A DNA stretch of 64,000 bases from Clostridia bacterium (GTDB taxonomy: Bacteria; Bacillota; Clostridia; Christensenellales; Borkfalkiaceae). Position numbers and translations under genes: made by a program. Shown piece after piece: positions 2,545-62,883 of the stretch; positions within the stretch are counted from its first letter, which is position 1; each line of letters opens with the position of its first letter. The notes beneath the pieces are model-generated. The model was given only the letters and a program-made list of their open reading frames with translations. It was not told the DNA's origin and searched no databases. The stretch spans positions 5,568 through 69,567 of the forward strand of contig JAFQVL010000063.1 of assembly GCA_017408045.1 (NCBI GenBank), written 5' to 3'.

Positions 2545-4068
2545 TTATTTGTTCTTATTTTCTTTATTTTCTTTTTTCGGCTTATCTTCCTTGCCTTTTT
2601 TACCTTTCTCGTCCTTGTTGTCCTTCTGCCCGGGTAGCGTACGGTTCAATCTTTCCTGCATCGCCTTTTCTTCCTTCTTGCTCATCGTAACGTCCACGAT
2701 TTTATTGATAAGCATCGTAGACAACAACGAGAAGACGCTGGATATAACCATATAGATAGAGAATGCCGCGCTATACATAAACGCAAAGATACCGAACATA
2801 ACGGTCATGATGATCATGGTCGTTTTTTGCGTCGCCGCCTGCTGACCGTCTACGGACGAATACTTGTTCTGCGCTTTTTGCGAACGCATCGAAATAAACT
2901 GCTGCAGCAAAATCGTACCGATGGACAAAACAATCAAGATAAAGTATCCGTTCGGGGCTTCCTTTGCTTGCGTCAAGTTCATGGTAATTTCATGAAACGC
3001 CACTTCGCTGTAAGGGGATGCGTTAAATTTTTGCACGTTGGTGAAATCCACCGCCGTTCCGTTCACGTTAAACGTATTTTTGTCCCCATTAGGCAGCATT
3101 TTTTCGTGCGCAGTCAAAGGATGCTCGTACGCAGCGTCCACGTTCCAAACGTTCTTTACCCATAAAAAGCCTACGCGCGTAAAGGAATTGTCTTCATAGT
3201 CCTTGCGTACCGCCTCGCGCGCAATTTGGTAATAATAATTGCGGATTACGTTTTCGTTTTCATCGTCGTTCCCCGTCAACGTCAACGTAGGCGCAATCGC
3301 CAAGGTTCTATCCTTGTCCGTATAGTACTTTGCTTTTTCCGCCTGAACGGTTTTCTGCTCCTGTTCTACGGTTTCATAACTCGTTTGATATGCAACCGCC
3401 GCTTTGACGTATCTTACAAGGTTTTCCTTGGACAAATCGGTGAGGTTTTCGCTCGTCTTTATCGTATAATAAACCGCCTTACCGTCCTGTTGTACGGTGA
3501 TCGTGCCGTGCGCAGATTCCTCTTCCGTCGCCTCGTACCAAACGTACGTGAGCATGTCCTCGTTAATATTCTCCGTTTCGGGAGCAAAACTTTCAATCGC
3601 TTGGTTATAGGCGTGGACGAAACAGTTGTAGTTTTGCACGTTTGCATACTTTGCATACGCGTTGAAACCGCCGATTGCCGTAAAGAACACGACCATCGAA
3701 AGGATCATGGGTAAGCAAGAGGAAAACATCGAGATCCCGTTTTCCTTATACATTTCCATAACCTTTTGGTTGTATTTTTCCTTATCGTTGGCATACTGCT
3801 TTTGCAGTTTTTCCATTTTCGCTTGATTTTCCTGCATCTTGTTGTTTTGCTTACGCATTACCACTCTTTGATAAATATCAAGAGGCAAAACAATCAATTT
3901 CAAAAGCAGAGAAAATACGATAACGCCAATACCAACCGAGCCGATACCTGTAATCAGCCATTCGATAATTTGACCGATCCAGTTCAGCGAAATATCATAA
4001 GTTTGACCAAAGTGGTTCAACTCTATCGCATTGAGAAGTTGTATTATTTCCATATTGATTCTTTCCAT
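2545..4068 (-). CDS. yidC: membrane protein insertase YidC/Oxa1 family, unusually long (507 aa)
   Basis: YidC core motifs PLDIYQ...MQENQAKMEKLQKQY...MEMYKENGISMFSSCLPMIL, multiple TM segments and a Lys-rich C-terminal tail. The true start may be the ATG at 4053. Confidence 0.85.
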   Translation of the reverse strand: MERINMEIIQLLNAIELNHFGQTYDISLNWIGQIIEWLITGIGSVGIGVIVFSLLLKLIVLPLDIYQRVVMRKQNNKMQENQAKMEKLQKQYANDKEKYNQKVMEMYKENGISMFSSCLPMILSMVVFFTAIGGFNAYAKYANVQNYNCFVHAYNQAIESFAPETENINEDMLTYVWYEATEEESAHGTITVQQDGKAVYYTIKTSENLTDLSKENLVRYVKAAVAYQTSYETVEQEQKTVQAEKAKYYTDKDRTLAIAPTLTLTGNDDENENVIRNYYYQIAREAVRKDYEDNSFTRVGFLWVKNVWNVDAAYEHPLTAHEKMLPNGDKNTFNVNGTAVDFTNVQKFNASPYSEVAFHEITMNLTQAKEAPNGYFILIVLSIGTILLQQFISMRSQKAQNKYSSVDGQQAATQKTTMIIMTVMFGIFAFMYSAAFSIYMVISSVFSLLSTMLINKIVDVTMSKKEEKAMQERLNRTLPGQKDNKDEKGKKGKEDKPKKENKENKNK

Positions 4069-13977: not shown

Positions 13978-16308
13978 TTATTTCTCTATCGCCACGTCGA
14001 AAACTTCGCTGACGTTTTCCGTAAGTACGAAACGCAGCGTTTTTGCAATCTCCGCAGGAATATCCTGAATATCCCGTTCGTTTGCTTTCGGGATAATAAT
14101 CGTGGAGATCCCAGCGCGCGCCGCTGCCAAAGCCTTCTCCTTTAAGCCGCCGATGGGCAGCACTTTCCCTCGCAAGGTAATTTCCCCCGTCATAGCGACG
14201 TCGGTGCGTACTTTCTTTCCTGTGAACACGGAAAGGATTGCAGTAGCAATCGTAATCCCTGCGCTAGGGCCGTCTTTAGGGGTTGCTCCCTCGGGAACGT
14301 GTACGTGTACGTTGTTCGTTTCAAATAAATTCTCGTCGATGCCGTATTCCTTAGCGTTTGCACGTACGAAGGTCAGCGCCGCCCGCGCAGATTCCTTCAT
14401 GACGTCGCCAAGCTTACCTGTCAAGAGAATCTCCCCTTTTCCTGCTACCTTGGTTGCCTCGACAGTCAAGGTTGTCCCGCCGTACGCCGTCCAAGCAAGG
14501 CCGTTTACAGCGCCTACCTCAGGGCTGCGTTTTTCCTCGTTCAATACGTACATGGGTGCGCCCAACAGTTCGATAACCTTCTTTTTCGTAATCGAAACGG
14601 GACGCATTTTTTTATGGTCTGCATACTTCACCGCAATCTTACGGCAAACAGAGCCAACCGTTCGTTCCAAAGTACGCACGCCTGCCTCTAAAGTATAACC
14701 TTCAATCAAAGTCTGCAACCCTTCTTCGGTAAACAAAGCCTGTTTTTCGGTGATACCGTTTGCTTTTAACTGTTTAGGAATAAGGTAATGCTTTGCAATC
14801 TCCATCTTTTCTTGCAAAGTGTAGCCAGAAAGCCGGATGACTTCCATTCTATCTAAAAGAGGTTTTGGAATGGTGTCTAAGGAGTTTGCCGTCGTGATAA
14901 AAAGCACCTTGGAAAGGTCGTAAGGAACTTCCAAATACCGATCGCGGAAAGTGGGGTTTTGTTCGGGGTCTAAAACCTCTAACAAAGCAGAGGCGGGATC
15001 GCCGCGCATATCCGAGGAAATCTTGTCAATTTCGTCGAGTAAGAACACGGGGTTAATCGAGCCTGCGTTTTGCATCGCATACAAAACCCTGCCGGGGATT
15101 GCGCCGACGTACGTTTTACGGTGTCCGCGGATTTCCGCCTCATCCTTAACACCGCCAAGACTCATGCGCACGAATTTACGATTAAGCGCGCGCGCCACCG
15201 AACTTGCAATACTCGTCTTTCCCACACCGGGAGGACCTACCAAACACAAAATCGGGGCTTTCATATTCCCCGTCAACTTCAATACTGCCAAATATTCGGT
15301 GATACGCTCTTTGATTTTTTCCAAGCCGTAGTGATCGCTTTCCAAAACCTTTACGCAGTCGGAAAGTTTTTCGGTATCCTTCGTTTCTTCCGTCCAGGGA
15401 AGAGATAAAACTTGGTCTAAATAAGTGGTAATAATCGTGTATTCAGGCGCAGAGGGCTGTATACGACTAAGGCGAGAAACTTCCTTCAAGCACTTTTCTT
15501 CCACTTCAGGCGGCAGATGTTTTTCGAGGATTTTTTGCTTATATTCCTCTTCCTCTTTGCCGGTATCTCCCAATTCTTCGTGGATAGCGCGAAGCTGTTC
15601 GCGCAGGAAATATTCCTTTTGATTTTTGTCGATGCTTTGACGGACGGCGTTTGCGATTTTCTTTTCAATTTTTGCGATTTCCAACTCGTCGTTTAAGCAC
15701 TTTTCAAACAATTTCAACCGTTCTAAAACGCGCGGTTCTTCCAAAATTTTCTGCTTGATAGCATTGCGAACGCGCATAGAAGAAAGTAAAATATCTACGT
15801 ACTCGTCGGGGTCAGAGCAAAGATCTGCTTTTTGCAACAGCTCTTTTGCAATCTTCCCATCCGTTCCCAAAACGTCGGAAACGAGCGCTTTTGCCGTGCG
15901 AAAATACGCCTCTGTCAATACGTCGTCTCCCTTTTTAGGCGCAACCTCAACGACGTGCGCCCAAAAGCAGAGATCGTCTTGATAAAATTCAGAAATCTTC
16001 GCGCGATAAAGCCCGTCTGCGTGTACGCGAATCGTACCGCCAGGCAGTTTAGAAATCTGACGAACGCGCGCGACGACCCCGACGGTATACAAATCGTCGG
16101 CGGTAATTTCGTCCCGTTTACTATCCTTTTGAGAAACGATGAAAAGCAGACGGTCTGCATTTTCCGAGGCTTTTTCTACCGCTTTTAAGGTGCGTTCTCG
16201 CCCCGCCTCGAAGATAATCGAAACGTGCGGAAATGCGATTTTTCCCCGAAGGGGAATTAAGGGGATAGACAACTCCCTGATTTTTTGAAATTCTTGATTT
16301 TTTTCCAT
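13978..16308 (-). CDS. lon: ATP-dependent Lon protease (LonA)
   Basis: 776 aa with a Lon N-domain, Walker [10 protein letters not shown] and the protease active-site motif PKDGPSAG. Confidence 0.92.
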
Positions 16309-16405
16309 ATGCTAATTATAACCTAAAAACGAAGTATTTTAAACGCAAGTAATTTATACAAAAACGCCTCTAAAGAGAGGCGTTTTCAGTACCTGCTTTG
16401 CAAGC

Positions 16406-17254
16406 TTAATTTTGAACGGATGTTTCCTCTGTCTGTTCTTCCGGATTCTTCGTATCATCTTCGTCTACGTCGTTTTCATCACAAGTATACCCGTAATTGT
16501 AGGCATATTTAGAATAATGATAATAGCCGCGGTAATTGCTATAGATTTTACCTTGAGACGCGTGGTAATCGTTGACAACCACCCCTAAAACTTCTGATTT
16601 TGCGAACTGCAACGTCGCAAGAGAGCGCTGTACGTCCGAAACGTAGGAAACGTTGTGTCTGCAAATCAGCACCGCACCGTCTGTTTTCGGCGCGATAGCC
16701 AAAGCGTCCGAAACCATCAAAACAGGGGGCGTATCAATGATTGTATAATCAAATTTTTTCCTAAGTTCTTCTAAGAACGTAGCCATTTTGTCGCTTTCAA
16801 GCAATTCATAAGGCTTAGGAGAGTGCGTTCCGCAGGGAATAAAATACAGATTTTCGTTTACAGTCGAGTGATGTAAAATTTCTTCAAAAGAAACCAAACC
16901 CGAGAGGTAGTCGCTAAGACCGGGCGAAGATTTACATTGGAAATATTTTGCAACTCTGCCCTTGCGGATATCGGCGTCAATCAAAACGACCTTTGCATCC
17001 GACATTGCAAACATCAAAGCAAGGTTTACCGTAACCATAGTCTTACCGTCCTCAGGGTAAGAGGAAGTAAAGGTGAGGATGGAGCCTCCCTGCTTTTCAG
17101 GAATGGAAACGGAAAGAGATGCTTTTAAATTACGAAATGCTTCCGTAATATCGAAGGGCGTGTTCTTATCCAACAGGTATACCTTACGGGGAATTTTATG
17201 TTTCTTTGCGTCTTTTTCATGACGACGGTTTTTTAAGTTTTGAAAAAATCCCAT
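16406..17254 (-). CDS. CpsD/CapB-family bacterial tyrosine kinase (BY-kinase) catalytic subunit
   Basis: Walker A-like SSYPEDGKT and Walker A' VVLIDADIRKG. C-terminal tyrosine cluster YSNYRGYYHYSKYAYNYGY. Confidence 0.8.
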   Translation of the reverse strand: MGFFQNLKNRRHEKDAKKHKIPRKVYLLDKNTPFDITEAFRNLKASLSVSIPEKQGGSILTFTSSYPEDGKTMVTVNLALMFAMSDAKVVLIDADIRKGRVAKYFQCKSSPGLSDYLSGLVSFEEILHHSTVNENLYFIPCGTHSPKPYELLESDKMATFLEELRKKFDYTIIDTPPVLMVSDALAIAPKTDGAVLICRHNVSYVSDVQRSLATLQFAKSEVLGVVVNDYHASQGKIYSNYRGYYHYSKYAYNYGYTCDENDVDEDDTKNPEEQTEETSVQN

Positions 17255-17256
17255 AC

Positions 17257-18546
17257 TTACACCTCCTTATTCCGTTGTTCAGATTCATTCTGAGCGTTTA
17301 CTTCTTCTTCGCCGATGGAAGGAATAACACCCAGAAGAGGAACGTTGAGTTGACGAGCAACCAAGTCGTAATCACGGACGCGCTTATCCGATCTATCAAG
17401 GAAGATGACTACAACGCAAGCAACTACAACAGCGATTGCCGCAACCAGCAAAGCAAATTTAATCGACTGTTTTAAAATATATCCCTCATTGATCAGGGAG
17501 ATATCGGTGATGGTGGTGATTTGCGTACAACTCGTCGAAGTATAACCATCAGGAATGATCATTTTTTCACATACGTACTTAGGCAATTCCGACTGCACGC
17601 GCGCCAACAGATCTTCTGCAAACGGCTGATTATCTTCCCCTAAAACGGACAGTTCGACGTAAATGAAGCTTCGCGCCAGGTCGACGGCGTTGTCCAAATC
17701 TTTTTTGTCTTGTACGTAGGAGAATTCAACTGAATCCAAAATAATCAAAAGCAGTTCTTGGTAGCTTGCCGTCTTTCTCCAAGCGTTCAAAGCAACGGTG
17801 ATTTTTTCCTCTGCCGTCTTTGCCGCCGCGAGATAGATTTCTTTCGCTTCCGCTGCAGCATCTTTTGCGCTAATGTAAGCATTCTCCGCACTCTTCATCT
17901 CGCTATACGCTTCGTCCAAATACTCGTCTTTCAAGACTTCTTTCAAACGCAAATATTCTTCCTCGTTGAAGGTGGAGTTAGCAACTTCATCCGCGTTAAA
18001 ATGCTTTAACCAAAGTGGGTTGAGTTTCTTTAAAGCCGCGTTATATATGTTATAGGCCTCACTCTTTTCTGCGTTTGCCGCAAGGTAGTCGTCCTGTTTT
18101 TCCAATGCTACGTTATAATCTGCTCTTGCAGCGACAATCTTATCGTCTAAACCCAAAGCGACTTCCTTTTCATTGAGAGGGTCTACCCACTTACCGGTTT
18201 CAGGTAAAACGTCGCCGTTCAAAATGAGTAATTCCCCAAAACTTTCCGAATTGAGAAGTCGTACGATATTGTCCATAACGTTCTTACCGTAAGCACCGTA
18301 AACGCCGTAAGTAGAACCACCCGTCAAATCCATATCTTCTTCCTTATCGGGGCGCACAGGGTTGACGTAGAATTCCATATTCGTACCCCAGTAATAGACG
18401 TTGTAAGACGTTGCAAAACCAATTGCGCCACCCAACAAACCTCCACACAACAATACGAGAATGAGAATCTTTATTTTCGCCAACAGGATTTTTAATAAAC
18501 CCAACAGGCTAAGTTCTTCATTTTGGAGCTGTTCATTTTCGTTCAT
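17257..18546 (-). CDS. Wzz/CpsC-like chain-length-determinant / BY-kinase transmembrane activator, enlarged extracytoplasmic domain
   Basis: Two TM helices (LILVLLCGGLLGGAIGFA near the N-terminus, FALLVAAIAVVVACVVVIFL near the C-terminus) flank an about 330-aa domain. The gene abuts the kinase gene. Confidence 0.7.
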   Translation of the reverse strand: MNENEQLQNEELSLLGLLKILLAKIKILILVLLCGGLLGGAIGFATSYNVYYWGTNMEFYVNPVRPDKEEDMDLTGGSTYGVYGAYGKNVMDNIVRLLNSESFGELLILNGDVLPETGKWVDPLNEKEVALGLDDKIVAARADYNVALEKQDDYLAANAEKSEAYNIYNAALKKLNPLWLKHFNADEVANSTFNEEEYLRLKEVLKDEYLDEAYSEMKSAENAYISAKDAAAEAKEIYLAAAKTAEEKITVALNAWRKTASYQELLLIILDSVEFSYVQDKKDLDNAVDLARSFIYVELSVLGEDNQPFAEDLLARVQSELPKYVCEKMIIPDGYTSTSCTQITTITDISLINEGYILKQSIKFALLVAAIAVVVACVVVIFLDRSDKRVRDYDLVARQLNVPLLGVIPSIGEEEVNAQNESEQRNKEV

Positions 18547-18693
18547 GGTATTCTCCTTTTTAACTGATATGTAATCGTATCCGCTTTCTTTTCTAAAAGA
18601 AAAGTAAGCCGTTCAAATGACATTATAGCACCATTTTTACGAAAAAGCAAGTATTTCTACAAGAAATAACTGTAAAAATCTTCCCTTAACCGC

Positions 18694-18722
18694 TTGAAAA
18701 AAAGCGGGAAATATGCTATACT
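18694..18722 (+). promoter_or_regulatory. sigma-A type promoter of holB-ricT
   Basis: TTGAAA (18694-18699), a 17-bp spacer containing an extended -10 TGc, then TATACT (18717-18722). Confidence 0.5.
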
Positions 18723-18776
18723 ACAAGGAAGAGGCGCTATACCGGCGGCTAAAAAAGAAAAAAGGGAGCAGGACGG

Positions 18777-19751
18777 GTGCAAGAGATTTTACAAAACACA
18801 ACCGCGTATACCCGTTTGTTGTCGCAAAGGGAAGAAGGAAAACTCTCTCACGCCTACCTACTCGTGTACGACGACCCCGTACACACCAAGACGGCGTTGA
18901 AAGCGCTGGCAAAAATCCTCTTTTACGCAGAGGAGAACGGCTATAACGAGTACGGTAATTTCGAGCAAGAACGCATTGCGCGACTTATAGACGGGGAGAA
19001 GTACGCCGATTGCCTTGTTTATCCAAAAAACGAAAAAAGGTTGAACGTCGAGGAATGTGAGCGTATCGTCGAGGAATGTTTTATCCACGCCGTCGAGGGG
19101 GAAAGGAAGGTAATTCTCATCGACCGTATCGACGAGGCGTTGCCCACCGCGCAAAACAAATTATTGAAAGTGTTAGAAGAACCGCACGAAGGGGTAGTAT
19201 TCTTATTGTCGGCAAGGACAACCTATCCCGTTTTGCAAACGGTTTTATCCAGAACGCAAAAACTGGAAATTACACCCTTCCCGATAGAAAAAGTAGGAGC
19301 GTGTCTGCGACGAAACAAAAAAATCACCGCAAATGCAGAGGAAATTCAGTTGGTGTCTGCACTCTCTTGCGGCAGCGTTGGCACGGCGGAAGGCTTACTT
19401 GCGGCAGGGTATTATAAGACTTTGCTGACCGACGCTTTTGCCCTCTGCGAGTGCGAATTAGACCGTCTGCCGATTGCGGCAAAGCAGGCAGGCGCAACCA
19501 AAAACAAAAAAGAGTTGGTGTCGATTCTGCGTTTAATTTTTAGAGATGCGGCGTTTATAAAACTTGGTCAAAAGGCGCAGATGCTGCTTGCGCCCGAAAA
19601 AGAACGGATTTCCCGCATCGCGCAGCGTTTTTCTTACGCTGCCCTCACCCACGCACAGGAACGGCTCTCGGCGGTGGAAAAAGAGGTAGTATTCAACGCG
19701 AATTTCACGCAGGCTATTGAGCTGTGTATGGCGAGGATTTTAGTGAAATAA
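18777..19751 (+). CDS. holB: DNA polymerase III subunit delta prime
   Basis: HAYLL... and NKLLKVLEEPHEGVVFLL motifs. holB-yaaT synteny. Confidence 0.8.
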   Translation: MQEILQNTTAYTRLLSQREEGKLSHAYLLVYDDPVHTKTALKALAKILFYAEENGYNEYGNFEQERIARLIDGEKYADCLVYPKNEKRLNVEECERIVEECFIHAVEGERKVILIDRIDEALPTAQNKLLKVLEEPHEGVVFLLSARTTYPVLQTVLSRTQKLEITPFPIEKVGACLRRNKKITANAEEIQLVSALSCGSVGTAEGLLAAGYYKTLLTDAFALCECELDRLPIAAKQAGATKNKKELVSILRLIFRDAAFIKLGQKAQMLLAPEKERISRIAQRFSYAALTHAQERLSAVEKEVVFNANFTQAIELCMARILVK

Positions 19752-19763
19752 TAAGGAAACAGT

Positions 19764-20621
19764 ATGGTAAAAGTAGTAGTTATAAAATTTAAAAACGGCG
19801 GAAAGCTGTATTATTTTGCCCCTAAAAACGGGGAAGTGTACGAGAGGAATATGCCCGTCATCGTGGAAACGGCGAAGGGCTTGGAATACGCTTGGGTGGC
19901 GTACCCCACTCGCGAAGTGGAGGACGAAGAGGTGGTACAACCCTTAAAACCCATCATTCGTATCGCCACGCAAAAGGATAAAGATTTCTATGCGGCGGCA
20001 GAGGCGAAAAAACCCGAGGCGATGCGTATCTGTCGGGAACGGATTGCAAAGCACGGGTTAGAGATGAAGCTTGTGGATTGCGAATATGCTTTCGACGGCA
20101 GCAAGATTGTGTTCTACTTCACCTCGGCAAACCGTGTGGACTTCCGCGAGTTGGTAAAGGACCTTGCCTCCACTTTCCACAACCGTATTGAACTCCGACA
20201 AGTGGGCACGAGGGACGAAACGAAGTACCTCGGCGGACTTGCGCCCTGCGGCAGAGTGTGCTGCTGCGCAGGCAATATGCCTGAATTTAAAAAGGTGACC
20301 ATTAAGATGGCAAAGACGCAAGGTTTAGCGTTGAACCCTGCAAAAATCAACGGGCTTTGCGGCAGATTGATGTGCTGTCTTAGTTATGAGAGCGAATACT
20401 ACGCAGACGCGTACAAGAAAGTACCCAAAGTGGGTTCGGAAGTCGGTTCGCCCGACGGCAAAGGGATTGTTGCGTCGGTGAATATGCTGAAAATGACGGT
20501 CAAAGTCAAGATCGACGACCAAAACGGCGGTCTGATTTACAAAGACTTCCCCGTCGAGGAAATCAAATTTAAAAAAGGCAACGCGCCCGTCAAAGACGAG
20601 GACGAGAAAGACGAAGAATAA
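19764..20621 (+). CDS. ricT: PSP1-domain protein RicT (YaaT, stage 0 sporulation protein)
   Basis: PSP1 C-terminal domain sequence with conserved Cys clusters (CGRVCCC, CGRLMCCL). Lies downstream of holB. Confidence 0.85.
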   Translation: MVKVVVIKFKNGGKLYYFAPKNGEVYERNMPVIVETAKGLEYAWVAYPTREVEDEEVVQPLKPIIRIATQKDKDFYAAAEAKKPEAMRICRERIAKHGLEMKLVDCEYAFDGSKIVFYFTSANRVDFRELVKDLASTFHNRIELRQVGTRDETKYLGGLAPCGRVCCCAGNMPEFKKVTIKMAKTQGLALNPAKINGLCGRLMCCLSYESEYYADAYKKVPKVGSEVGSPDGKGIVASVNMLKMTVKVKIDDQNGGLIYKDFPVEEIKFKKGNAPVKDEDEKDEE

Positions 20622-20890: not shown

Positions 20891-23800
20891 ATGGAAGGAA
20901 ATAGCAGAAAAATAATCATCACACCAACGCCGATGCCGGAACCGGGTTCAACCGAAGGCGATGATTCTATTAAGCATGAAATATCGAACGTGCAGCAGGA
21001 ATACGGATTGATTAAAGGCGTGAAAGCACACGTCAATTTTGACGATAAGAGCTACGCAATGTCCGTGCCGATCATTCAAGGCAAGGACACAACGATGGGT
21101 ATTACATTGTTGCAGATACATAACCCCAGCAACGAATTGACGGTCTTTGGCGGCGGCATTCGATTTAATTTCAGCGAGGAATTGCGGATAGACACAGAGG
21201 ATAGTAGCTACTACAAATACACAGACGAGGTTGGCAAGCAGGAGCGTTTTAAAAACCAATATTATTATAAAGGCAGCAGCTACGTATTAAGCGAAGCGGA
21301 TATAAACGAGATGACGTACGACCAAACGCTTGGTTGCTACGTACACGGCTCCGCAAAGGTGGAATACGACGGGCAGACAAAAAACGGATGGAGATTTGTA
21401 TCTGCCAAAGAAATGCCAACGGTGCAAGGGGTTTTAAGCGTAATGGAAACCAGCTTAAACACCGTAAAAAGCAATCACGACGAAGGTGAAACGTCAGGTA
21501 TGGCTACGAAAGCATATTATCTTAGGAAAGGCAACCAAATTAAAGTATTCAATACAGCTGGGTATCTAATTCAGATTGGCAACAGTACAGGTCAATTCGT
21601 GTATATTGTGCGAGAGAATGGGCACAAGATTTTGCGTATTTTTGACCATGAGGGCAGAGAGATTACCTTTGAGTACAGTAGCGGCAAACTGCAAAAAATC
21701 ACAGACAGCCGCGGTAGAGAAATTCTCTATACGTACGACGGACAAAGAGTCCAAAAAATCAGATACCGCGCGAATGCAAGCAGCAGTACTTCGTATGAAA
21801 GTTTAACCTATAATCACCATATCGTAGACGGCGTAAAGCAAAACAAGACCACTATTACATCTTCAGACGGCGAAAGCGCGACCTTAGAATATACCACGCA
21901 AGAGGGAAATTCGCTAACCAAAATCACCTACCAGCCGCAGAACAAAACGTTATCTTTTTTATACACCGACACAAAGGTTATTGTCAGCGCCGAAAAAGGC
22001 ACGCAGGAAGAAGGCACGCAGGAAGAAGGCACGCAGGAAGAATACACCGTTTATAGAGGCGCGGAGATTCCGTATATCAACGAATATAAACAGACGGTGA
22101 ACGGAAAGATAACGGCATACAATACCTATTTAATTGCCCAAAGAAGCGGGCTTATCGTGCGGGAAACGAAATATCCAAAGCGTTCACAGCTTTGCAAGGC
22201 AACGGTTCCAAGCAGCTTGCCGATTATCCACACGGTAAAGAACGATCGTCGAAAACTGGTTTTAGAGGAAACGCAGGAGAATATCGAGGTATCACCAACA
22301 GTCAACAAGGACGTGCATACGACGTATACTTATAACGAATATGGAATGCCTGTAAAACGCCGAACGGTAGAAACGTACTCCACGGGCGAAAGCTACGCTT
22401 ACGTAGAAGAAAGCTTTTACAATCCAACGACCCTTGGCTTACAAAAGAAAGTATCCTACGTAGAGGGCGAGGAGCAAACGACGGGATACGCGTTTGAATT
22501 CTATACCTACGACAGCCAAGGCAGAGTAATTAAAACCAAGACGGTGAGAAAGATTTGTGAATGCAGCGGGGATTGTACCTGTAAAGGGTTAGAGGATAGC
22601 ACCACTCTTTTGGGCTTCGTGCAGGAGCAGACCTATGACGAACACGGCAACGTGGTATCTAAAAAGGACGAAACGGGGCTGTATTATACGGCTTACACGT
22701 ATACGGAGAATACCAAACTTTTAAAGCGAGAGCATAGACCAGGGACTACCTCACAACACCAAATCGAATACACCTATGACGAACGGGATAGATTAGTCAA
22801 GGCGGCGGAAACAGCCACATATAACGTTATGGGGTATACCGCAGACAACGTTTCCGTAATGGGTGTAAAGAACAACGAACAGCTGTTGCAGTTTACTTAC
22901 GACACAAGAAAGCGATTGTCACAGGTATCGTTTGGCGGTAGCGTGTACGAGGGTATGGAGTATGGCGAGAACGAAACTTACAGCGAATACGACGTGGACA
23001 GGATTGAGCTGAACAACGCCAACGTCGAAAAATTCAAACTCTTGTCCGATGTAAAGGGCGCAAAGGAATGGTATTTCTACACCCCTGCTGCTACTGAGGA
23101 AAGCCCTACCCCTGAAGAAACCTTGTTGTTTACCAACGAATACGACGAATACGGACAGTTGGTGAAATTAGATGCAACCGTCTACGGCGATACGTATCAC
23201 TATGATGAAACGTACGAATATGACGAGACAGGTAGGCTAACCTATTACGACGGAGACCTTATCAGAGAAACGTATACGTATAACAATAAGGGACAGATAT
23301 CGCAGATTGTGTATACGGGTGTGGCAAGCAGAACGGAAACGCGAGAATACACGGACGATTCGCGAGGGTTGTTAGAGAGAATCAGCTACGGCGACGTGGC
23401 GTGCTGGAAAACGTATGATAAATACGGGCGTTTACAATACCAAGGAGTTGAGCTGAATGGTTGCTATGACGTGTCTGATATAAAGTATAAAACCGTAAAC
23501 GACCACGAAACGAATCAGGTGCAGGAATTTAGAAACTCGGTAGACTGCTTTACTTATACCTATGATAAAAATGGGAATATCACGGAAATCTACAACTGGG
23601 GCAACCTCATTAAAAAATACACGTACAGTATTCAGGGAAGATTGACCACGGAAGAAAATCTGTCGATATCACAAAAGACGGAATATACGTATAGCCAGCA
23701 AGGAGATATTACCCAAAAGACAAGGTATATAAAGGATTTTAATGGAAACTATTTTAAACCTACAACGAAAACCTATACGTACAGCACGGACGGAAAGTAT

Positions 23801-48387: not shown

Positions 48388-48396
48388 CAAGCAGAA

Positions 48397-48441
48397 AGAG
48401 AGAACAAATCGGTTCGTAGCCGAAACGTCTCTCTTTTTTTT
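48397..48441 (+). terminator. intrinsic terminator after mntP
   Basis: Stem AGAGAGA...TCTCTCT enclosing the inner hairpin TCGG/CCGA, followed by T8 (48434-48441). Confidence 0.7.
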
Positions 48442-48444
48442 GTT

Positions 48445-48643
48445 GGTGAAGTTTTTCCTGACGCAAAAGTGAAGTTGCTTTGCAGTGAAGTTTGTACTAT
48501 GCACAAGTGAAGTTAAGTTTGCCCACTTTGCCAAAGGCAAAACTTCACTATCCGTAGGATAACTTCACTTACACAGTAAACTTCACTTGCCCGCATGGGC
48601 AAACTTAGTTATGCGTGTTATCCTTAACGGAAGACACGCATAA
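48445..48643. repeat. mirror array 1: 4 x (A/G)GTGAAGTT, then 3 (+1 degenerate) x AACTTCACT, with palindromic mini-hairpin spacers
   Basis: Forward copies at 48445, 48468, 48484 and 48506. Reverse copies at 48541, 48561 and 48579, with a degenerate copy at 48602. Spacers are GC-TTT-GC, TGTaC-TAT-GcACA, ATCC-GTA-GGAT, TAC-ACA-GTA, TGCCC-GCAT-GGGCA and TTATGCGTGT-15nt-ACACGCATAA. All abut the repeats with no linker. Confidence 0.9.
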
Positions 48644-48919
48644 GCTGACAAGACTTGAACCTTTCAGTCTTAAAATATTATTTTGCGCGCCTTTAAGACG
48701 GTTGCGCCCTTGCAGTATGCTGATACGGCGGCGGTCGCCACCGCCTAAATTCATCACAAAATCCCTATTTTAAGATGCTGCGCAGGTTTCACGAGCGCGA
48801 AATTTCTTAAATGAAAGGATTTTCGCGCAGGAATACCGTCCGTATTGCAAGAGAAAATCCTGTACAGTTGGGGGATTTCTCGCCGTCAAAACCTAAAAAG
48901 TTCAAGTCTTGCCAGCTTA
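48641..48919. repeat. about 275-bp segment bounded by 20-bp terminal inverted repeats (19/20) with TA at both outer ends; MITE-like or structured RNA
   Basis: TAAGCTGACAAGACTTGAAC (48641-48660) versus GTTCAAGTCTTGCCAGCTTA (48900-48919). Internal nested inverted repeats include TCTTAAAATA/TATTTTAAGA, AGGATTTTC/GAAAATCCT and GCGCGAAA/TTTCGCGC. Confidence 0.7.
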
Positions 48920-48931
48920 AGGCAAGTCCTT

Positions 48932-50065
48932 TTACCGTACCGGCGCAAAGCGAACGGTAATCTGTAATTGCAACCGTTGCACGAGGCTATCTTTGAGCCG
49001 CGCGAAATGATTATTTTCATATTTTTGCAGTTTTCCGATGGCATCAAAGGCATCGAAACCGATGCTTTTGCAGTAAGCAAAGGTCGATTGAATTTGCTCT
49101 GACAAAACATTTCCTGCGTTGGTGTATAGCGCCGACTGCTTTTCTCTGCTCGAAAGCGCCTCTAAAGGTTGGCTATTTGCCGCGTCCGTCCATTCTGCAT
49201 AGAGGGTGAGGTTGATGCGCATCGTAGGCTCGTCCCCGTCTAAAAGAAAGCGAAGTTTCCTTTGGTTTTGCTTGATGAGCAGGGTGTTTTCTTCCCCCTG
49301 GCTTTGCACCGTGTATGCGGCAAGGCGCAGGGGATTTTTGATACACGAAAGAGCGAACGTCCCCTTTTCGTCCAACACGCCGATCCGCCGTCCGTTTTGA
49401 AATAGAGCGGTCTTCGAGGCGTTGAAAACGTCCCCGTCCTTTCCCGTTTCCTTAACAATCAGCGGCATATATCCACTATTCCCTGCCGAAAAGTAGGAGA
49501 TAGCGAACGGCCGCAGACTGGCGGTAAGCACCGCGCCCACCCGTTTGGGTTGGTCGGAAAGCACCTTTTCGATTGCCTCGCTGACGGCGGCCTTTAAGGG
49601 CGGCTTGGCTTGCAACAGTTCGCTTGCCTTTCCGTCGGTGGCAGCGAGTAGCGGATCGTCGGCGGCATAGTCGCTGCGCAAGAAATAATCGAGCGCATCG
49701 AACACGTTGCCGCTGCAAAGGCTTTCTCCAAGCAACAACACCCGACAAAACACCAGTTTTGGATACCAGCCCGTTTTGGCGTTGACGTCTTCCAACGCCT
49801 CCGCCACCGTTTTGCCTTGCCCTTGTACGGCGGCATATCCGTCTGCGGTTTGCCCGGTCTTCGCTCCCCCCTCGCTGCCCCCTTGCGAGGCAGGGTTGGC
49901 AATCAACGCCGTCAAGGAAAACCCGTCTTCTTCTTTGTCAATGGCGATCGCTGTGATAATGGCGGTCTTTTGCACGTTGACGAGGTTAAAGTCGTTGCTA
50001 AAAAATGCAATCAGCAAAAAGAGTAAAATACAAAGATAATAAAGAATGGATTTTTTACTCCTCAC
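48932..50065 (-). CDS. Ger(x)C family spore germination protein
   Basis: GTG start at 50065 with a GGAGG RBS (the track ORF extends further upstream in frame). N-terminal hydrophobic anchor. GerAC-like sequence as third gene of the operon. Confidence 0.7.
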   Translation of the reverse strand: MRSKKSILYYLCILLFLLIAFFSNDFNLVNVQKTAIITAIAIDKEEDGFSLTALIANPASQGGSEGGAKTGQTADGYAAVQGQGKTVAEALEDVNAKTGWYPKLVFCRVLLLGESLCSGNVFDALDYFLRSDYAADDPLLAATDGKASELLQAKPPLKAAVSEAIEKVLSDQPKRVGAVLTASLRPFAISYFSAGNSGYMPLIVKETGKDGDVFNASKTALFQNGRRIGVLDEKGTFALSCIKNPLRLAAYTVQSQGEENTLLIKQNQRKLRFLLDGDEPTMRINLTLYAEWTDAANSQPLEALSSREKQSALYTNAGNVLSEQIQSTFAYCKSIGFDAFDAIGKLQKYENNHFARLKDSLVQRLQLQITVRFAPVR

Positions 50066-59387: not shown

Positions 59388-60827
59388 ATGATAGAAAAGA
59401 ATACGATTATTACCGCCGTGACGAGCGCGATTGGGTCGAACGGGGAAGGCATCGTCAGGCACGAAGGGATTACCTTTTTCGTGCCTGCTTGTTTACCGGG
59501 TGAAAAGGTGCGCTTTCGGGTTTTGAAGGTCAAGGACGGTATCGGATATGGAAAAATAGAGGAGATTTTGACTCCTGCCGAAGAGCGTGTACGTGAAAAA
59601 TGTCCCGTATTTTTGCGTTGCGGCGGCTGCAAATTGCAGCATATGGAATACGGCACGCAGTTGTACTTTAAGCAGAATATCGTCAAGGACTGTTTGCGCA
59701 AAATCGGGGGCTTAAACGTCGAGGTAAAGCCGACGGTAAAAAGCGATTTGCCCTACGCCTATCGCAATAAGTTGCAGTTGCCGGTGGGGGTAGACAAAGA
59801 GGGAAATACCGTCATCGGGTTCTATGCCGAGCGCTCCCATCGTATCGTGCCGACGGATAGTTGCGCGATTCATCCAAAGTGGGCGGAAAAACTGATTGCT
59901 GTCATCAAACGCTACTGCGCGGAGTGGGGTGTCGAGGGGTACGATGAGGACAGAAAAACGGGTGTTTTGCGCCATATCGTAGCAAGGGAAATCGGTGAAA
60001 ACTTCTTAATCACGCTAGTGTGCACGCAAAAGAGCCTTCCGGCGCTGCCGCATCTTATCGAGCTGCTTTCGATGGTGTTTTCCGTTTTCTCGCTGTATAT
60101 CAACGTAAACGACAAGGATACCAACGTAATTCTTGGAAAAGAGTTTCATCTCGTACACGGTAGCCCCGTTTACGAGGCGCAGGAACAGGGGATTTTGTAC
60201 GAGGCAGGGCCTCAGACCTTTTTGCAGGTCAATGAAAACGTGCGCTCAAAACTATACAACGCCGCCCTCAAGTCGGTGATTGAAACGGGGGACGAAGTGG
60301 TGGTAGATGCCTATTCGGGCGGCGGCTTATTGACGGCGATGCTGGCAAAGCGCGCAAAGCGAGTGTATGGCATTGAGTTAGAGCCAGAGGCGGTGGCTTG
60401 CGCCAATTCGCTCAAGCAAAAGAACGGCTTAAAAAATATGACGAACATCTGCGGCTACGTAGAGGAAAAACTTGCGGCGGTACTGGAACAAGAGCGCGGC
60501 GAAAAGGTGCGCTTAATTCTCGATCCACCGAGAGCAGGAATACACCGCAGCGTATTAAAGGCGCTGCTGGAAAGTGGGATACCGTCGTTGACGATTATCT
60601 CGTGTAATCCGTCGACTTTGGCGCGGGATTTGGGGATTTTGACAGGCAGACTGATTGAAAAAGAGGGTTCAAACGGAGAGTTGATTAAAAACCCTGCTTA
60701 CGAGGGTTTAGCAGACGACGAAACTCTGCCTGGGTACTACGCTCCGACGAAGATTCAGCCGTATGATATGTTCCCCCAAACGAAACACGTAGAGACGCTG
60801 GTTTGCCTTGCGCGCAAGGCGGACTAA
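59388..60827 (+). CDS. rlmD: 23S rRNA (uracil-5-)-methyltransferase RlmD/RumA family
   Basis: I chose the start at ATG 59388, which has an AAGGGGG RBS. TRAM domain, a 4-Cys Fe-S cluster (CPVFLRCGGCKLQH), LDPPRAG, ISCNPSTLARD and the DMFPQTKHVE C-terminus. Confidence 0.88.
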   Translation: MIEKNTIITAVTSAIGSNGEGIVRHEGITFFVPACLPGEKVRFRVLKVKDGIGYGKIEEILTPAEERVREKCPVFLRCGGCKLQHMEYGTQLYFKQNIVKDCLRKIGGLNVEVKPTVKSDLPYAYRNKLQLPVGVDKEGNTVIGFYAERSHRIVPTDSCAIHPKWAEKLIAVIKRYCAEWGVEGYDEDRKTGVLRHIVAREIGENFLITLVCTQKSLPALPHLIELLSMVFSVFSLYINVNDKDTNVILGKEFHLVHGSPVYEAQEQGILYEAGPQTFLQVNENVRSKLYNAALKSVIETGDEVVVDAYSGGGLLTAMLAKRAKRVYGIELEPEAVACANSLKQKNGLKNMTNICGYVEEKLAAVLEQERGEKVRLILDPPRAGIHRSVLKALLESGIPSLTIISCNPSTLARDLGILTGRLIEKEGSNGELIKNPAYEGLADDETLPGYYAPTKIQPYDMFPQTKHVETLVCLARKAD

Positions 60828-60896
60828 AATATCTATCCGCCCCCTGCGGGAGTTTATTGACGCAAGGGCAGGATACATATTTTAGTGTTTTACACG

Positions 60897-61034
60897 GAAA
60901 ACAAAAACGAGCGTATCAAGTGTTTTAGTTCGCCGTCGGCGAGAGACGGACATACATTCCGCTTTGCGGGATATATGTTCCCCCAAACCAAACACGTGGA
61001 AAGTTTAGTTTGTCTGACGAAGCAGACAAACTAA
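60897..61034 (+). pseudogene. relic 3' fragment of a second rumA/rlmD-like gene; 60897-60995 is direct-repeat copy A
   Basis: In-frame reading gives ...ERIKCFSSPSARDGHTFRFAGYMFPQTKHVESLVCLTKQTN*. Compare the genuine RlmD end ...ISCNPSTLARD...YDMFPQTKHVETLVCLARKAD*. There is no upstream body. Confidence 0.7.
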
Positions 61035-61259
61035 AGCGATATAAATCCTCACGGATTTGCGATATTTGCCTTGTGGCAAGCGATATGCCTGCGGCGCGAT
61101 ATGCCGCGAACTGCGCGGCGTGAGGATTTATAGGTAGCGTGCTTTCCACCACGTTCGCCATAGGCGAACATATCGCTGTTTCGCAACACGAAACAATATC
61201 GCGCGCGCGGAGCGAGCATATCGCGCACCGAAGGTGCATATCGCGTGAGCGAAGCGAAC
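61004..61259. repeat. mirror array 2: 4 x GCGATAT, then 4 x ATATCGC, with ten different flush mini-hairpins
   Basis: GCGATAT at 61036, 61059, 61080 and 61096. ATATCGC at 61170, 61196, 61218 and 61238. Hairpins are 61004-61035 (13 bp), AAATCC-TCAC-GGATTT, TTGCC-TTGT-GGCAA, GCC-TGC-GGC, GCCGCG-AACTG-CGCGGC, TTCGCC-ATA-GGCGAA, TGTTTCG-CAACA-CGAAACA, GCgCGC-GGA-GCGaGC, GCACC-GAA-GGTGC and a partial one at 61245-61259. Confidence 0.9.
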
Positions 61260-61349
61260 TAAAATAGGACAAAAGTGATTTTTGAGCAAACCTCAAAACT
61301 CTTATTTACATCTGTTTGGTATAACATATCGAAAGAAAAGGAAGTGCAT

Positions 61350-62354
61350 ATGACATCTTTGCTGCTAAAAAATTTTAGAGACCTATACAATAAACACCAA
61401 TTTAGTGATAATCTTCCTAATTATTCTGTTTTGTGGCATTATACCAGTGTTAATGGGCTTATGGGTATTGTACAAAATGCAACTTCAGAGCATGGAAAAC
61501 TGCACTTTTGGTTTACTCGTAGTGATTGTCTAAATGACACCTCTGAGGGGATGCATGTTTTGGATTTATTTAAGAGAATATGTTGTGAATTGTTAAGTAA
61601 GGGACAAATAAGCAATGCTTTTTATGAATGTTTGAAACACATTGAAATACCAAATAGCCACTTCGTTAGTTTCCCTGTTCCTAGCGACGAAAAATATACA
61701 CATATGAGTGTTCTTGATTGTCCAGAGTGCGATGCCTATATTTGCAGTTTTTCATTAAAAGAAGATTCTTTGGATATGTGGCGATATTATTCCAAGGGAG
61801 ATGGGGGCTATGCGTTAAAACTTTATGCATTTATGTTCGATAAACATAAGGAGTATGAGTATTCTGACTATGATGAAAAAGCTGTTTTCAGCAACATTTC
61901 TTCATATAAAGTCATTTACGATGAAGCAACTAAACAAAACATGCTCGAAAATGTCATTTTGGATACTTTCAAAGTTTATGAACAGTTAATAGAAACAGAG
62001 CCAGACTGTGAAGAAAACGCAATGGGTTTTATCAAGCACGCATTAAAAATATTCCAATTTCAATTTAAACACGACTGTTACGCTTCGGAACAAGAATATC
62101 GCTTTGTTTTTTATCGTCCATGTAGCAAGCCCGAATTGTTACAAAACGAACTACCTGAAGTGAAATACAGATCACAGAACGGAGTAATTGTTCCGTATAT
62201 AGACCTCACCATAGAAAATGGCGCATCGTACTTATCAGAAGTTTTAATTAGTCCATTTATCAAGAGTAAAGTGGTTAAAAAAACAACACAAGAATATTTG
62301 TCTCAATGTGGTATTAACTGTGAAGTACGACACTCGGAATTGCCTGTTCGGTGA
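61350..62354 (+). CDS. DUF2971-like protein
   Basis: I chose the start at ATG 61350 (MTSLLLKNF...). LWHYTSVNGLMGIV...WFTRSDCLNDTSEG...EQEYRFVF resembles the DUF2971 pattern. The gene is markedly AT-rich. Confidence 0.55.
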   Translation: MTSLLLKNFRDLYNKHQFSDNLPNYSVLWHYTSVNGLMGIVQNATSEHGKLHFWFTRSDCLNDTSEGMHVLDLFKRICCELLSKGQISNAFYECLKHIEIPNSHFVSFPVPSDEKYTHMSVLDCPECDAYICSFSLKEDSLDMWRYYSKGDGGYALKLYAFMFDKHKEYEYSDYDEKAVFSNISSYKVIYDEATKQNMLENVILDTFKVYEQLIETEPDCEENAMGFIKHALKIFQFQFKHDCYASEQEYRFVFYRPCSKPELLQNELPEVKYRSQNGVIVPYIDLTIENGASYLSEVLISPFIKSKVVKKTTQEYLSQCGINCEVRHSELPVR

Positions 62355-62421
62355 GCAAATGTTAAAGAATAGCTAGGATTCCGTAAAATAAGTTGTTATT
62401 AGTGTTTAGGAGATAAATCAA

Positions 62422-62883
62422 ATGAAAAAGTTATTAGCTTTATGCTTGACAGTAGTTTTATGCTTATGCTGTCTTGCATCGTGCGGTATTACGGGATTTC
62501 GTTCTATAAGCTATCAGGATGCTGACACGGAAAGGTTATTAATGGACGGTTATGCACCAAAAAGGGCAAAGCCCGGCGATATCGTTGTGCTCCGCACAGG
62601 TCCTATTATGGACGCCAACCTCGATTTATACGCTAATGGTGTAAAGCTCGATAACACCCATAACGATTCTGATTATTGGGAATATATTTTTACAATGCCT
62701 GACGAGGATGTTGTAATAACGCATGACATAATCGGTGGATTTGGATATAAGGAGTGCGTTAACCACATTGACGAAAACAAAAACGAGCGTATCAAGTGTT
62801 TTAGTTCGCCGTCGGCGAGAGACGGACATACATTCCGCTTTGCGGGATATATGTTCCCCCAAACGAAACACTTGTTTTCATAA
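62422..62883 (+). CDS. small lipoprotein whose last about 36 codons derive from the rumA-relic repeat
   Basis: Signal peptide and lipobox MKKLLALCLTVVLCLCCLASCG. The C-terminus ...NKNERIKCFSSPSARDGHTFRFAGYMFPQTKHLFS* is encoded by repeat copy B (62773-62871). Confidence 0.6.
   Translation: MKKLLALCLTVVLCLCCLASCGITGFRSISYQDADTERLLMDGYAPKRAKPGDIVVLRTGPIMDANLDLYANGVKLDNTHNDSDYWEYIFTMPDEDVVITHDIIGGFGYKECVNHIDENKNERIKCFSSPSARDGHTFRFAGYMFPQTKHLFS
62773..62871 (+). repeat. 99-bp direct repeat copy B (98/99 identical to 60897-60995)
   Basis: Base-by-base comparison shows a single C/G difference (60989 vs 62865). The last 23 bp, ATATGTTCCCCCAAAC[G/C]AAACAC, also occur at 60766-60788 inside rlmD. Confidence 0.9.

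Follow-up and report, generated by a model that had tools for sequence, protein, structure and literature searches.

What is the run of short repeated words and small palindromes that lies between the convergent genes mntP and gerAC of this Clostridia bacterium, and does it act as DNA or as RNA? We addressed this question in the window, the 64,000-nucleotide stretch of contig JAFQVL010000063.1 that was analysed as a whole. Comparison with other genomes shows that positions 48388-48645 are one minus-strand copy of a repeated, insertion-polymorphic extragenic element of gut Clostridia. The locus is a new member of an already named, uncharacterised family, Gut-1 RNA. The best explanation overall, to which we assign a probability of roughly 45%, is that of a mobile two-armed DNA element that would display its words between mini-hairpins and has a protein of the PF05635 family as candidate partner.

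Words and hairpins between mntP and gerAC

Against an expectation of 2.1, the window contains 11 copies of the word GTGAAGTT, a count that none of 100 shuffled sequences reached, and seven of the 11 cluster inside 48446-48586. On the plus strand it stands at 48446, 48469, 48485 and 48507 (intervals of 23, 16 and 22), and on the minus strand at 48541, 48561 and 48579 (intervals of 20 and 18), with a degenerate copy, AACTTAGT, 23 nt beyond. These are the four direct, three exact inverted and one degenerate copies, at the same intervals, that a preliminary description of the locus had listed. Its hairpin spacers are likewise all present: GC-TTT-GC, ATCC-GTA-GGAT, TAC-ACA-GTA and TGCCC-GCAT-GGGCA, self-complementary and flush with the words, together with the apex hairpin and a further hairpin at 48609-48643 whose two 15-nt arms are 87% complementary. 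The 545-bp gap that it placed between the convergent 3' ends of mntP and the gerA operon is also correct (mntP stop at 48387, 3' end of gerAC at 48932), and its long-range complement of 11 nt is an exact complement of 12 nt (48514-48525 against 48596-48607). A window-wide scan for any 7-mer with at least three spaced direct copies and nearby inverted copies found this locus and one at 61 kb (61036-61244) only.

The whole element covers ~48388-48645 (258 bp) and reads on the minus strand, as a left-end module (hp0), arm 1, a closing segment, arm 2 and a right-end module (hpT), whose coordinates are given in Table 1. Arm 1 runs from the variant word AACTAAGTT through hairpin 1 (TTGCCC-ATGC-GGGCAA) and three GTGAAGTT words alternating with hairpins 2-3 to hairpin 4, whose loop is AAA or GAA among orthologues. 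The preliminary description treated an "mntP terminator" (48395-48441) and the hairpin at 48609-48643 as neighbours of the array. Both are conserved end modules that are common to copies at unrelated loci: the hpT module (AAAAAGAGAGAAC...GTTCTCTCTTTCTGCTTGT) also lies 3' of arm 2 at six of them, and the hp0 hairpin (GCGTGTTATCC TTAAC GGAGAACACGC) also precedes arm 1 at seven. We had considered the "new mntP terminator" as rearranged target sequence and dropped this idea because the same module is present at unrelated loci. hpT is the sole terminator-like structure close to mntP; its hairpin (48395-48436, followed by T8) has a long loop and was missed by the terminator scanner, which classed the hairpin at 48908-48935 as terminator-like. 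The internal mini-hairpins have no T run.

Acquisition at a terminator and membership in the Gut-1 family

MntP homologues gave access to eight orthologous mntP-gerAC spacers. Five sites (L001, L003, L006, L007 and L008; loci outside the window are numbered with an L) are empty, with a 43-bp spacer that holds the bidirectional terminator hairpin alone and no hpT. The filled sites are those of the window, L002 and L004/L005. The mntP gene of L002 is 95.6% identical to that of the empty L001, 93-94% identical to those of L006-L008 and 81.5% identical to that of the filled L004. Between L002 and L004 the non-coding element is 90.9% identical and the adjoining gerAC 3' end 76.7%; the element, being more alike than its flanks, is younger than they are. 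It is therefore mobile and selective in its site, and the mntP/gerAC terminator gained it on more than one occasion, independently of the flanking genes. In the filled sites ~22 bp of the target (the outer descending stem, T run and spacer of the empty sites) are replaced. The orthologues keep their hairpins by two-sided stem changes, for example GTGC/GTAC versus GGGG/CCCC, so that the comparison of orthologous spacers proposed in the preliminary description brought out both presence or absence of the element and maintenance of its hairpins. A weak point of the observation is that the left-arm spacers TTTTCCTGACGCAAAA and TGTACTATGCACAA are poor, partly decayed hairpins in the window copy; L002 and L004 have clean hairpins at these positions. 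Compared with L002 and L004, the window copy has the canonical closing segment, hp0 and an extra segment of ~275 bp (48646-48920), differences that suggest exchange between copies. A metagenome scan anchored in the mntP 3' end for same-species alleles gave 0 matches, and an exact-protein look-up of the window MntP, with either start codon, gave no match.

We scanned species-representative genomes with the pattern GTGAWRTT x3 and metagenomes with a subfamily-specific pattern; the figures count the matches listed and are lower bounds. The preliminary description had called for a search for further instances, and there are many. More than 30 two-armed arrays occur among the genome matches, nearly all in metagenome-assembled genomes (MAGs) and isolates of gut Clostridia (Acutalibacteraceae, Oscillospiraceae, Ruminococcus, Christensenella, Roseburia, Eubacteriales and others), and the metagenomes of human and ruminant guts hold at least 123 distinct copies; the total exceeds 150 further arrays in gut Clostridia. 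The canonical 4+4 anatomy is found at more than 30 of the genome loci and in many of the 123 metagenome copies. Read 5' to 3', it consists of hp0, a variant word, hairpin 1, three words alternating with hairpins 2-4, the closing segment, and an arm 2 in which the reverse-complement word stands four times with three hairpin spacers. The canonical hp0 is an intrinsic terminator, a tRNA 3' end with its terminator, or the hairpin-forming final codons of rumA/rlmD. The closing segment is also found in the 61-kb locus, in one published Gut-1 seed and in 51 of the 123 metagenome copies (again among the matches listed). Words are 7-9 nt long, spacers are palindromes of 9-19 nt, and orientation flips at the centre. 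Every hairpin within an array differs in sequence and only the word between hairpins is constant. Across the family, hairpins that abut the words are formed by 144 of 178 spacers, compared with 14 of 178 shuffled ones. The earlier statement that the locus is no chance palindrome is supported.

The element sits right after the terminator of a co-directional gene, after a tRNA gene with its terminator, or after a rumA 3' end. In 20 of 24 arrays the gene that precedes hp0 is co-directional with the array; the downstream gene runs in either direction. The two loci of the window are oppositely oriented inside one GC-skew domain, indicating that orientation tracks the local upstream gene or hairpin and not replication. 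Genomes carry several copies, and more than one word type can be present in a single genome. Of the 120 matches from a pattern scan of viral contigs one was a true array, indicating that the family is not phage-typical; no phage or plasmid record matched the element by BLAST.

Two variants of the arrays deserve mention. L108 (1020-1600) has a tandem pair of 413-bp units, each made up of a tRNA 3' end with its terminator, a complete array and a sigma-70 promoter that is perfect (TTGAAA-17-TATAAT); the array is duplicated along with the tRNA gene. Long one-directional arrays with a word switch also exist: in five metagenome contigs GTGAAGT changes to GTTATGA partway, with GC-rich hairpin spacers, and these arrays may be a sister family.

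Among the Rfam covariance models, one gave a gathering-threshold match in the 64 kb, the Gut-1 RNA (RF01706). It covers arm 1 with 50.6 bits (gathering score 50; E = 5e-7; model positions 1-77). RF01706 is defined by three short hairpins of free sequence split by a GUGAAAU-like heptamer; arm 1 has this form, and in the alignment its words stand as GUGAAGU. In 13 further arrays the model falls on arm 1, on the canonical strand, at the gathering threshold. The 2010 publication of Gut-1 drew on 43 human-gut metagenome sequences and filed the motif as a probable non-coding RNA, with no function assigned (PMC2864571). The family is not new, one of its arms having been named since that year. In the raw Gut-1 seed alignment with flanks at least two seeds have GUGAUAU x4 and then AUAUCAC x4, the spacers being hairpins; the 2010 seed sequences already show two arms, a form that the paper did not describe. 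A literature search returned no account of the two-armed anatomy, host range, insertion polymorphism, DNA-type loop signature or PF05635 linkage.

The words of the family (GTGAAGT, GTGAAAT, GTGATAT, GCGATAT, TCGATAT, ATGATAT and a few outliers; consensus GYGAWRT) differ by single steps and form the series GTGAAGT - GTGAAAT - GTGATAT - GCGATAT - TCGATAT, and the sequence of hairpin 1 is kept within each word subfamily. The preliminary description regarded the two loci of the window as one family with a shared architecture and no related sequence. The family with its shared architecture stands; the two loci are not unrelated in sequence, since they match the same Gut-1 model (50.6 bits for the mntP locus and, below threshold, 33.8 bits with E = 8.4e-5 for the left arm at 61 kb) and their words belong to a one-step series. 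It further proposed a locus-specific recognition word. The word does differ between loci; it is not always common to both arms, as hybrid arrays combine an arm of GTGAAGT words with an arm of ATATCAC or ACATCAC words.

Loop polarity, a four-helix-bundle partner and competing explanations

Triloops dominate the hairpins, and on the sense strand they read TNY in arm 1 (48 of 59) and purine-any-A in arm 2 (31 of 41). Because this polarity flips between the arms, the arms are equivalent only under two-fold rotation. The strand that reads AACTTCAC carries the loops GAA, GTA, GCA or AAA, and it is on this strand that the C-GNA-G or GNNA loops are located; the closing pair is 5'-C...G-3' in ~85-95% of hairpins. 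Tetraloops are GNNA, and about half of those in arm 2 are GNYA, contrary to the GNRA rule of RNA. C-GNA-G and C-GNNA-G with C-G closure form extraordinarily stable DNA mini-hairpins (PMC13037366, PMC3201870), which are known in the G4 origin, RSF1010 ssiA and phage N4 promoters (PMC13037366). Arms that mirror each other would be produced by recognition of DNA and would not be produced by selection on a single RNA. The words are spaced by 16-26 bp without 10.5-bp phasing, and the spacing favours values given by triloop hairpins; unphased and set by hairpin length, it fits words joined by folded spacers and not words on one face of B-DNA. Stem pairs on the sense strand comprise 821 Watson-Crick, 6 G.T and 9 A.C pairs. 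The ratio of G.T to A.C in three tallies (6:6, 11:3 in a smaller set, and 6:9) has no consistent bias on either strand and does not discriminate, and folding is equally strong as RNA or DNA on either strand and does not discriminate either. Together, the loop polarity and the almost purely Watson-Crick stems favour a DNA-level element over a small RNA (sRNA).

Clustering of the open reading frames (ORFs) that start just 3' of arrays gave one recurrent family, of 117 aa and beginning with MKxSELRTRAK, which is PF05635 (23S rRNA intervening-sequence protein) / TIGR02436 (four helix bundle protein). At many loci the end of arm 2 and the start of the gene are 10-25 nt apart, or a short promoter stands between them. 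An array lies directly upstream of 17 of 19 PF05635 genes by an automatic test and of the other two by eye, in a sample that is biased, its loci all having been fetched for arrays, and that weakens the link to this extent. The 19 include genes only 43-49% identical, other word types and one Akkermansia. When viral contigs were sampled by protein similarity alone, a canonical array stood upstream at six of 10 loci; counted as distinct loci, four of eight have a canonical array and a fifth is array-like, an unbiased sample whose small size also tells against the link. Four of these viral-contig arrays follow directly on a tRNA gene with its terminator. Gut metagenomes hold 4349 homologues at E < 1e-8, of which the top 120 clusters are all at least 81% identical. 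The closest solved relative of the 117-aa protein, 2RLD, was deposited with five chains, and the PF05635 family includes Avd, the accessory protein of diversity-generating retroelements (DGRs) (PMC10053308). L365 and L337 are arranged as hp0 - arm 1 - arm 2 - gene - arm 1 - next gene, and the stop codon of the gene falls within the variant word; L305, a site without the gene, is arranged as hp0 - arm 1 - next gene.

Other arrays next to PF05635 genes differ in form. In L365 (~3395-3410) the stop codon TAA of the four-helix-bundle gene lies inside the variant word AACTAAGTT of the following arm 1. In L331 (380-700) the array upstream of the PF05635 gene has its arms reversed, the purine-loop arm first and the pyrimidine-loop arm second, and is followed by a clear extended -10 promoter (TGATATAAT); this order shows that the arms act as separable modules. 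An Akkermansia sp. MAG (L016, 5660-6180) has a partly duplicated GATATAA array with GC-rich hairpins ~240 bp upstream of a PF05635 gene, indicating that the pairing extends beyond Firmicutes to Verrucomicrobiota. The legend of Fig. 6 in PMC10910872 names a "23S rRNA IVP" among associates of CRISPR adaptation and CRISPR-like repeats; from this legend a tie to the arrays could not be confirmed. Were repeat finders to detect the arrays, this family could account for part of that association.

Two systems with PF05635 proteins resemble the arrays. Between the 3' end of a gene and avd, the DGR target requires a DNA hairpin or cruciform that forms only in supercoiled DNA; the sequence of its stem is free and its 5'-GRNA loop is strand-specific (PMC3240598). 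The arrays share with it the free stem, the strand-specific loop and a site between a gene 3' end and an Avd/PF05635 gene. They differ in having about eight mini-hairpins with words, whereas the DGR has one hairpin with a GC stem of 7-10 bp, a template repeat and a reverse transcriptase. The intervening sequences of 23S rRNA in Leptospira and Coxiella are likewise inserted elements with a PF05635 gene, inverted-repeat bounds and a hairpin site; these lie inside rRNA helices and are excised from RNA, whereas the arrays are extragenic and usually have both arms on one side of the ORF.

We infer, with moderate confidence, action at the level of DNA, a mini-hairpin display and binding by a PF05635 protein. 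The element would be a DNA site with two-fold symmetry and not an sRNA. In an unwound or negatively supercoiled duplex, its spacers would snap into C-GNA-G or C-GNNA-G mini-hairpins and would leave the four identical words of each arm side by side. This display is a candidate cis site for an oligomeric, Avd-like four-helix-bundle protein of the PF05635 family, whose gene stands directly after complete copies. Copies without the gene, such as the window copy and the 61-kb locus, would be non-autonomous sites served in trans. Hairpins at both ends would allow an insertion between convergent genes to be tolerated, hpT now presumably being the proximal terminator of mntP.

On this account Gut-1, an orphan "sRNA" of Rfam since 2010 that came from unassigned gut reads, gains hosts, a full anatomy, evidence of site gain, a DNA-type signature and a candidate partner. 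An orphan motif and an orphan protein family become a pair that can be tested at the bench, for what Gut-1 is and for what the thousands of non-DGR PF05635 proteins do, Avd being their sole characterised relative. Annotation may take the arrays for sRNA genes or mini-CRISPRs; they are also markers of insertion hot spots beside terminators. A broader version, which we regard as unlikely, would have the Gut-1 "RNAs" be no sRNAs but the cis sites of an unrecognised class of mobile DNA modules of small size, which gut Firmicutes carry and which have relatives in Akkermansia and on viral contigs. Each module would be a ladder of strand-specific mini-hairpins with repeated words on display, would be bound by a pentameric Avd-like four-helix-bundle protein and would home to hairpins (terminators, tRNA and rumA 3' ends), possibly by DGR-like hairpin priming with a reverse transcriptase in trans. 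If true, it would join the Avd of DGRs, the ORFs of 23S rRNA intervening sequences and the arrays as one hairpin-targeting family.

Several observations weigh against the two-armed DNA element, and a good part of them speak for RNA, which we keep as the main rival although we think it doubtful. The array would then be a structured RNA in a 3' untranslated region or an intercistronic mRNA, with the words of arm 1 and arm 2 pairing into a long branched duplex that serves as an RNase III site, an exonuclease barrier, a multivalent ligand or an autoregulatory leader for the four-helix-bundle protein. In DGRs, Avd is an RNA-binding protein. Relative to the upstream gene the array has sense orientation in the 20 of 24 cases given above, as expected for an RNA element, and transcription is obligatory where a gene abuts it: in L369 the rumA stop TGA lies within the first GTGAAGT word, and at five loci, L365 among them, a ribosome-binding site and ATG directly follow one of the arms (arm 1 or arm 2) and no promoter is predicted in between; at four of the five, L365 included, the space is too short for one. 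A sigma-70 promoter scan of L365 and the window found none inside the array nor between the array and the downstream gene, which in L365 is the four-helix-bundle gene. Folding of a 206-nt region gives -76 kcal/mol (z = -6.7) and pairs words with words, Gut-1 was classed as a likely RNA with covariation (PMC2864571), and PF05635 genes also occur within the 23S rRNA intervening sequences, which are RNA stem-loops (PMC10053308). Against RNA, the more than 830 stem pairs hold no excess of G-U over A-C, one transcript would carry UNY triloops in one arm and GNA in the other, the tetraloops are GNNA and not GNRA, both strands fold equally well, and hybrid-word arrays lessen the need for arms to pair. 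The arrays share with Gut-1 RNA (RF01706, PMC2864571) the gut-bacterial habitat and the three hairpins split by GUGAAAU-like heptamers; the published Gut-1 has one arm, is filed as an sRNA gene, and comes without function, host, second arm, end hairpins, mobility or protein partner. Its mirror-symmetric loops and the lack of wobble pairs put an RNA role of Gut-1 in question. There are further difficulties for the DNA element. Near-perfect stems could simply reflect young copies or quasi-palindrome correction; arm-1-only copies, hybrid-word arrays and a reversed arm order exist, so the 4+4 symmetry is not obligatory; and no PF05635 gene was found in the 64-kb window, so a trans partner elsewhere in the genome is assumed.

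Mobility, too, comes without a mechanism: no target-site duplication was seen at the filled/empty junctions nor at the other copies examined, and clustering of ORFs within 3.5 kb of ~35 arrays revealed no transposase, integrase, reverse transcriptase, primase or RAYT (the transposase that accompanies REP palindromes). This bears directly on a second reading, to which we give little credit, in which the arms are the left and right ends of a miniature inverted-repeat transposable element (MITE) with subterminal transposase words in the style of Tn7, Mu or En/Spm and a transposase elsewhere. Four words per arm inverted between arms, subfamilies with their own word and first hairpin, insertion polymorphism in an element younger than its flanks, and several copies per genome would all suit it; Tn7 and Mu ends and the pneumococcal BOX elements also have several short direct repeats per end, inverted between ends, and BOX elements are modular, intergenic and variable in the number of internal units. 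In the arrays, however, ~22 bp of target are replaced without duplication, terminal TG/CA is lacking, no autonomous copy has genes between its arms, and the one linked gene encodes a 117-aa helical bundle and stands outside them. The spacers are obligatorily palindromic with strand-specific loops, which transposase sites do not need, and different word types share one genome. In words and grammar the arms are inverted relative to each other, arm 1 is bounded by an inverted repeat of 10-12 nt, and hp0 and hpT are not inverted copies of each other. The preliminary description had allowed that its reading would fail if the region were an ordinary insertion sequence (IS) or MITE end with a known transposase motif; no transposase, target duplication or known motif was found. 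Equally improbable in our view is passive or weakly beneficial punctuation of the kind of repetitive extragenic palindromes (REPs) and their mosaics (BIMEs), acting in termination, insulation or absorption of supercoils with no dedicated protein. The array always comes just after the terminator of a gene and often separates convergent genes, or a terminator from the promoter that follows, terminator-like hairpins close both ends, and small C-GNA-G palindromes extrude under supercoiling, as work on phage N4 promoters reported. REPs of enterobacteria and pseudomonads are likewise short extragenic palindromes after gene 3' ends, in many copies and often in inverted pairs. They have one conserved sequence per genome, a 5' GTAG and one hairpin per unit, whereas in the arrays all hairpins differ, the single-stranded word is constant, units come in fours and no RAYT gene was seen near them; nor would punctuation explain the identity of all eight words in a locus, the strict loop polarity, the near-constant 4+4 count, or the tight recurrent linkage to PF05635. 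Least probable is an initiation signal on single-stranded DNA, with the arms as mirror-image priming or loading sites on opposite strands that a mobile element would use when it replicates or is transferred. Units of word and C-GNA-G hairpin do read 5' to 3' outward from the centre on both strands, and similar strand-defined mini-hairpins occur in the G4 origin, RSF1010 ssiA/ssiB and the phage N4 promoters for virion RNA polymerase, the two RSF1010 signals facing each other on opposite strands (PMC13037366). Those signals are single hairpins with fixed flanks in replicons and phages, without repeated words or chromosomal dispersal; the arrays are chromosomal, numerous and mostly outside recognisable plasmids or phages, copies within one genome have different words, none has a linked primase or Rep gene, and the opposed loci of the window already suggest an orientation independent of the replicon.

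Other known classes of repeat were considered and set aside. The arrays are not members of the REP/BIME class as defined by one palindrome per genome with a conserved 5' tetranucleotide, since their hairpins all differ. They are not CRISPR arrays: repeats are 7-9 nt and not ~23-50, spacers are palindromic and orientation flips. Integron attC sites were rejected because R''-L''...L'-R' / GTTRRRY boxes are missing and no integrase occurs in the neighbour clusters. For DGRs, no reverse transcriptase cluster was found among the downstream or neighbouring ORFs, pairs of template and variable repeats not having been specifically searched for. Chi sites, uptake sequences and restriction-related words do not fit a word that differs between loci of one genome, operators of the Rex/CRP type (GTGAA...TTCAC) have a different half-site spacing, and parS or iteron phasing does not agree with unphased intervals of 16-26 bp. 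Repeats of type III toxin-antitoxin systems were considered from the sequence and rejected, and hAT-like excision footprints were dismissed because the spacers are not copies of word ends.

The sister locus at 61 kb and smaller features

Table 1. Features of the element, its target and the sister locus, in window coordinates
Feature	Position	Strand	Description
hpT, right-end module	48388..48444		hairpin AAAGAGAGA(AC)...(GT)CTCTCTTT around a small inner hairpin, then T8 on the plus strand
arm 2	48445..48515	-	four words (GTGAAGTT on the plus strand, AACTTCAC on the element's minus strand); three spacers, two of them decayed
closing segment	48514..48525	-	complements 48596-48607 (tail of the variant first word and 5' strand of hairpin 1)
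hairpin 4, apex in the window copy	48527..48541		TTTGCC-AAA-GGCAAA
arm 1, Rfam Gut-1 RNA motif	48537..48611	-	cmscan match over the full model
hp0, left-end module	48609..48643		TTATGCGTGT-CTTCC-GTTAA-GGATA-ACACGCATAA, adjoining the 5' side of arm 1 (minus strand)
remnant of the ancestral bidirectional mntP/gerAC terminator	48908..48935		CTTGCC-AGCTTAA-GGCAAGTCCTTTT; target adjoining the element
sister hp0, arm 1 and closing segment	61004..61132	+	GCGATAT x4, four hairpins, closing segment GTGAGGATTTAT; Gut-1 33.8 bits
sister arm 2	61153..61244	+	ATATCGC x4, hairpin spacers; Gut-1 16.5 bits on the minus strand

At the sister locus, hp0 is the hairpin within a displaced copy of the rumA/rlmD 3' end, and a leader and a DUF2971 gene follow arm 2. 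The coding fragment of the rumA/rlmD 3' end occurs three times, as ..YDMFPQTKHVE.. at 60760-60827, as YMFPQTKHVESLVCLTKQTN* at 60966-61033 and as YMFPQTKH at ~62850-62875. A direct repeat of ~95 bp (~60898-60990 and ~62780-62870) flanks a 1.9-kb island that contains the 61-kb array, the DUF2971 gene (61350-62354) and a 153-aa ORF. The rumA 3' end of the window (60760-62883) looks like a tandem accretion of small islands. An arrangement of rumA 3'-end fragments with arrays recurs at three further loci (L126, L095 and L369), and in L369-L378 (2290-2520) the last ~9 codons of rumA come from the variant word and hairpin 1.

The segment of ~275 bp at 48646-48920, between the ancestral gerAC/mntP terminator and hp0, has no Rfam match and no convincing ORF. 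An inverted repeat of 27 nt (48641-48667 and 48893-48919, 89% complementary) bounds it, the outer copy overlapping the stem of the ancestral terminator. The segment may be a second small insertion, or DNA gained by exchange with another array copy.

GC skew in the window is negative before ~16 kb and positive after ~20 kb, and the switch at ~16000-20000 could mark an origin or terminus of replication, or reflect genes changing strand. The scan for the grammar of the arrays also met three exact tandem copies of a 15-nt unit (AAGGCACGCAGGAAG) at 21996-22040, which are probably a coding repeat.

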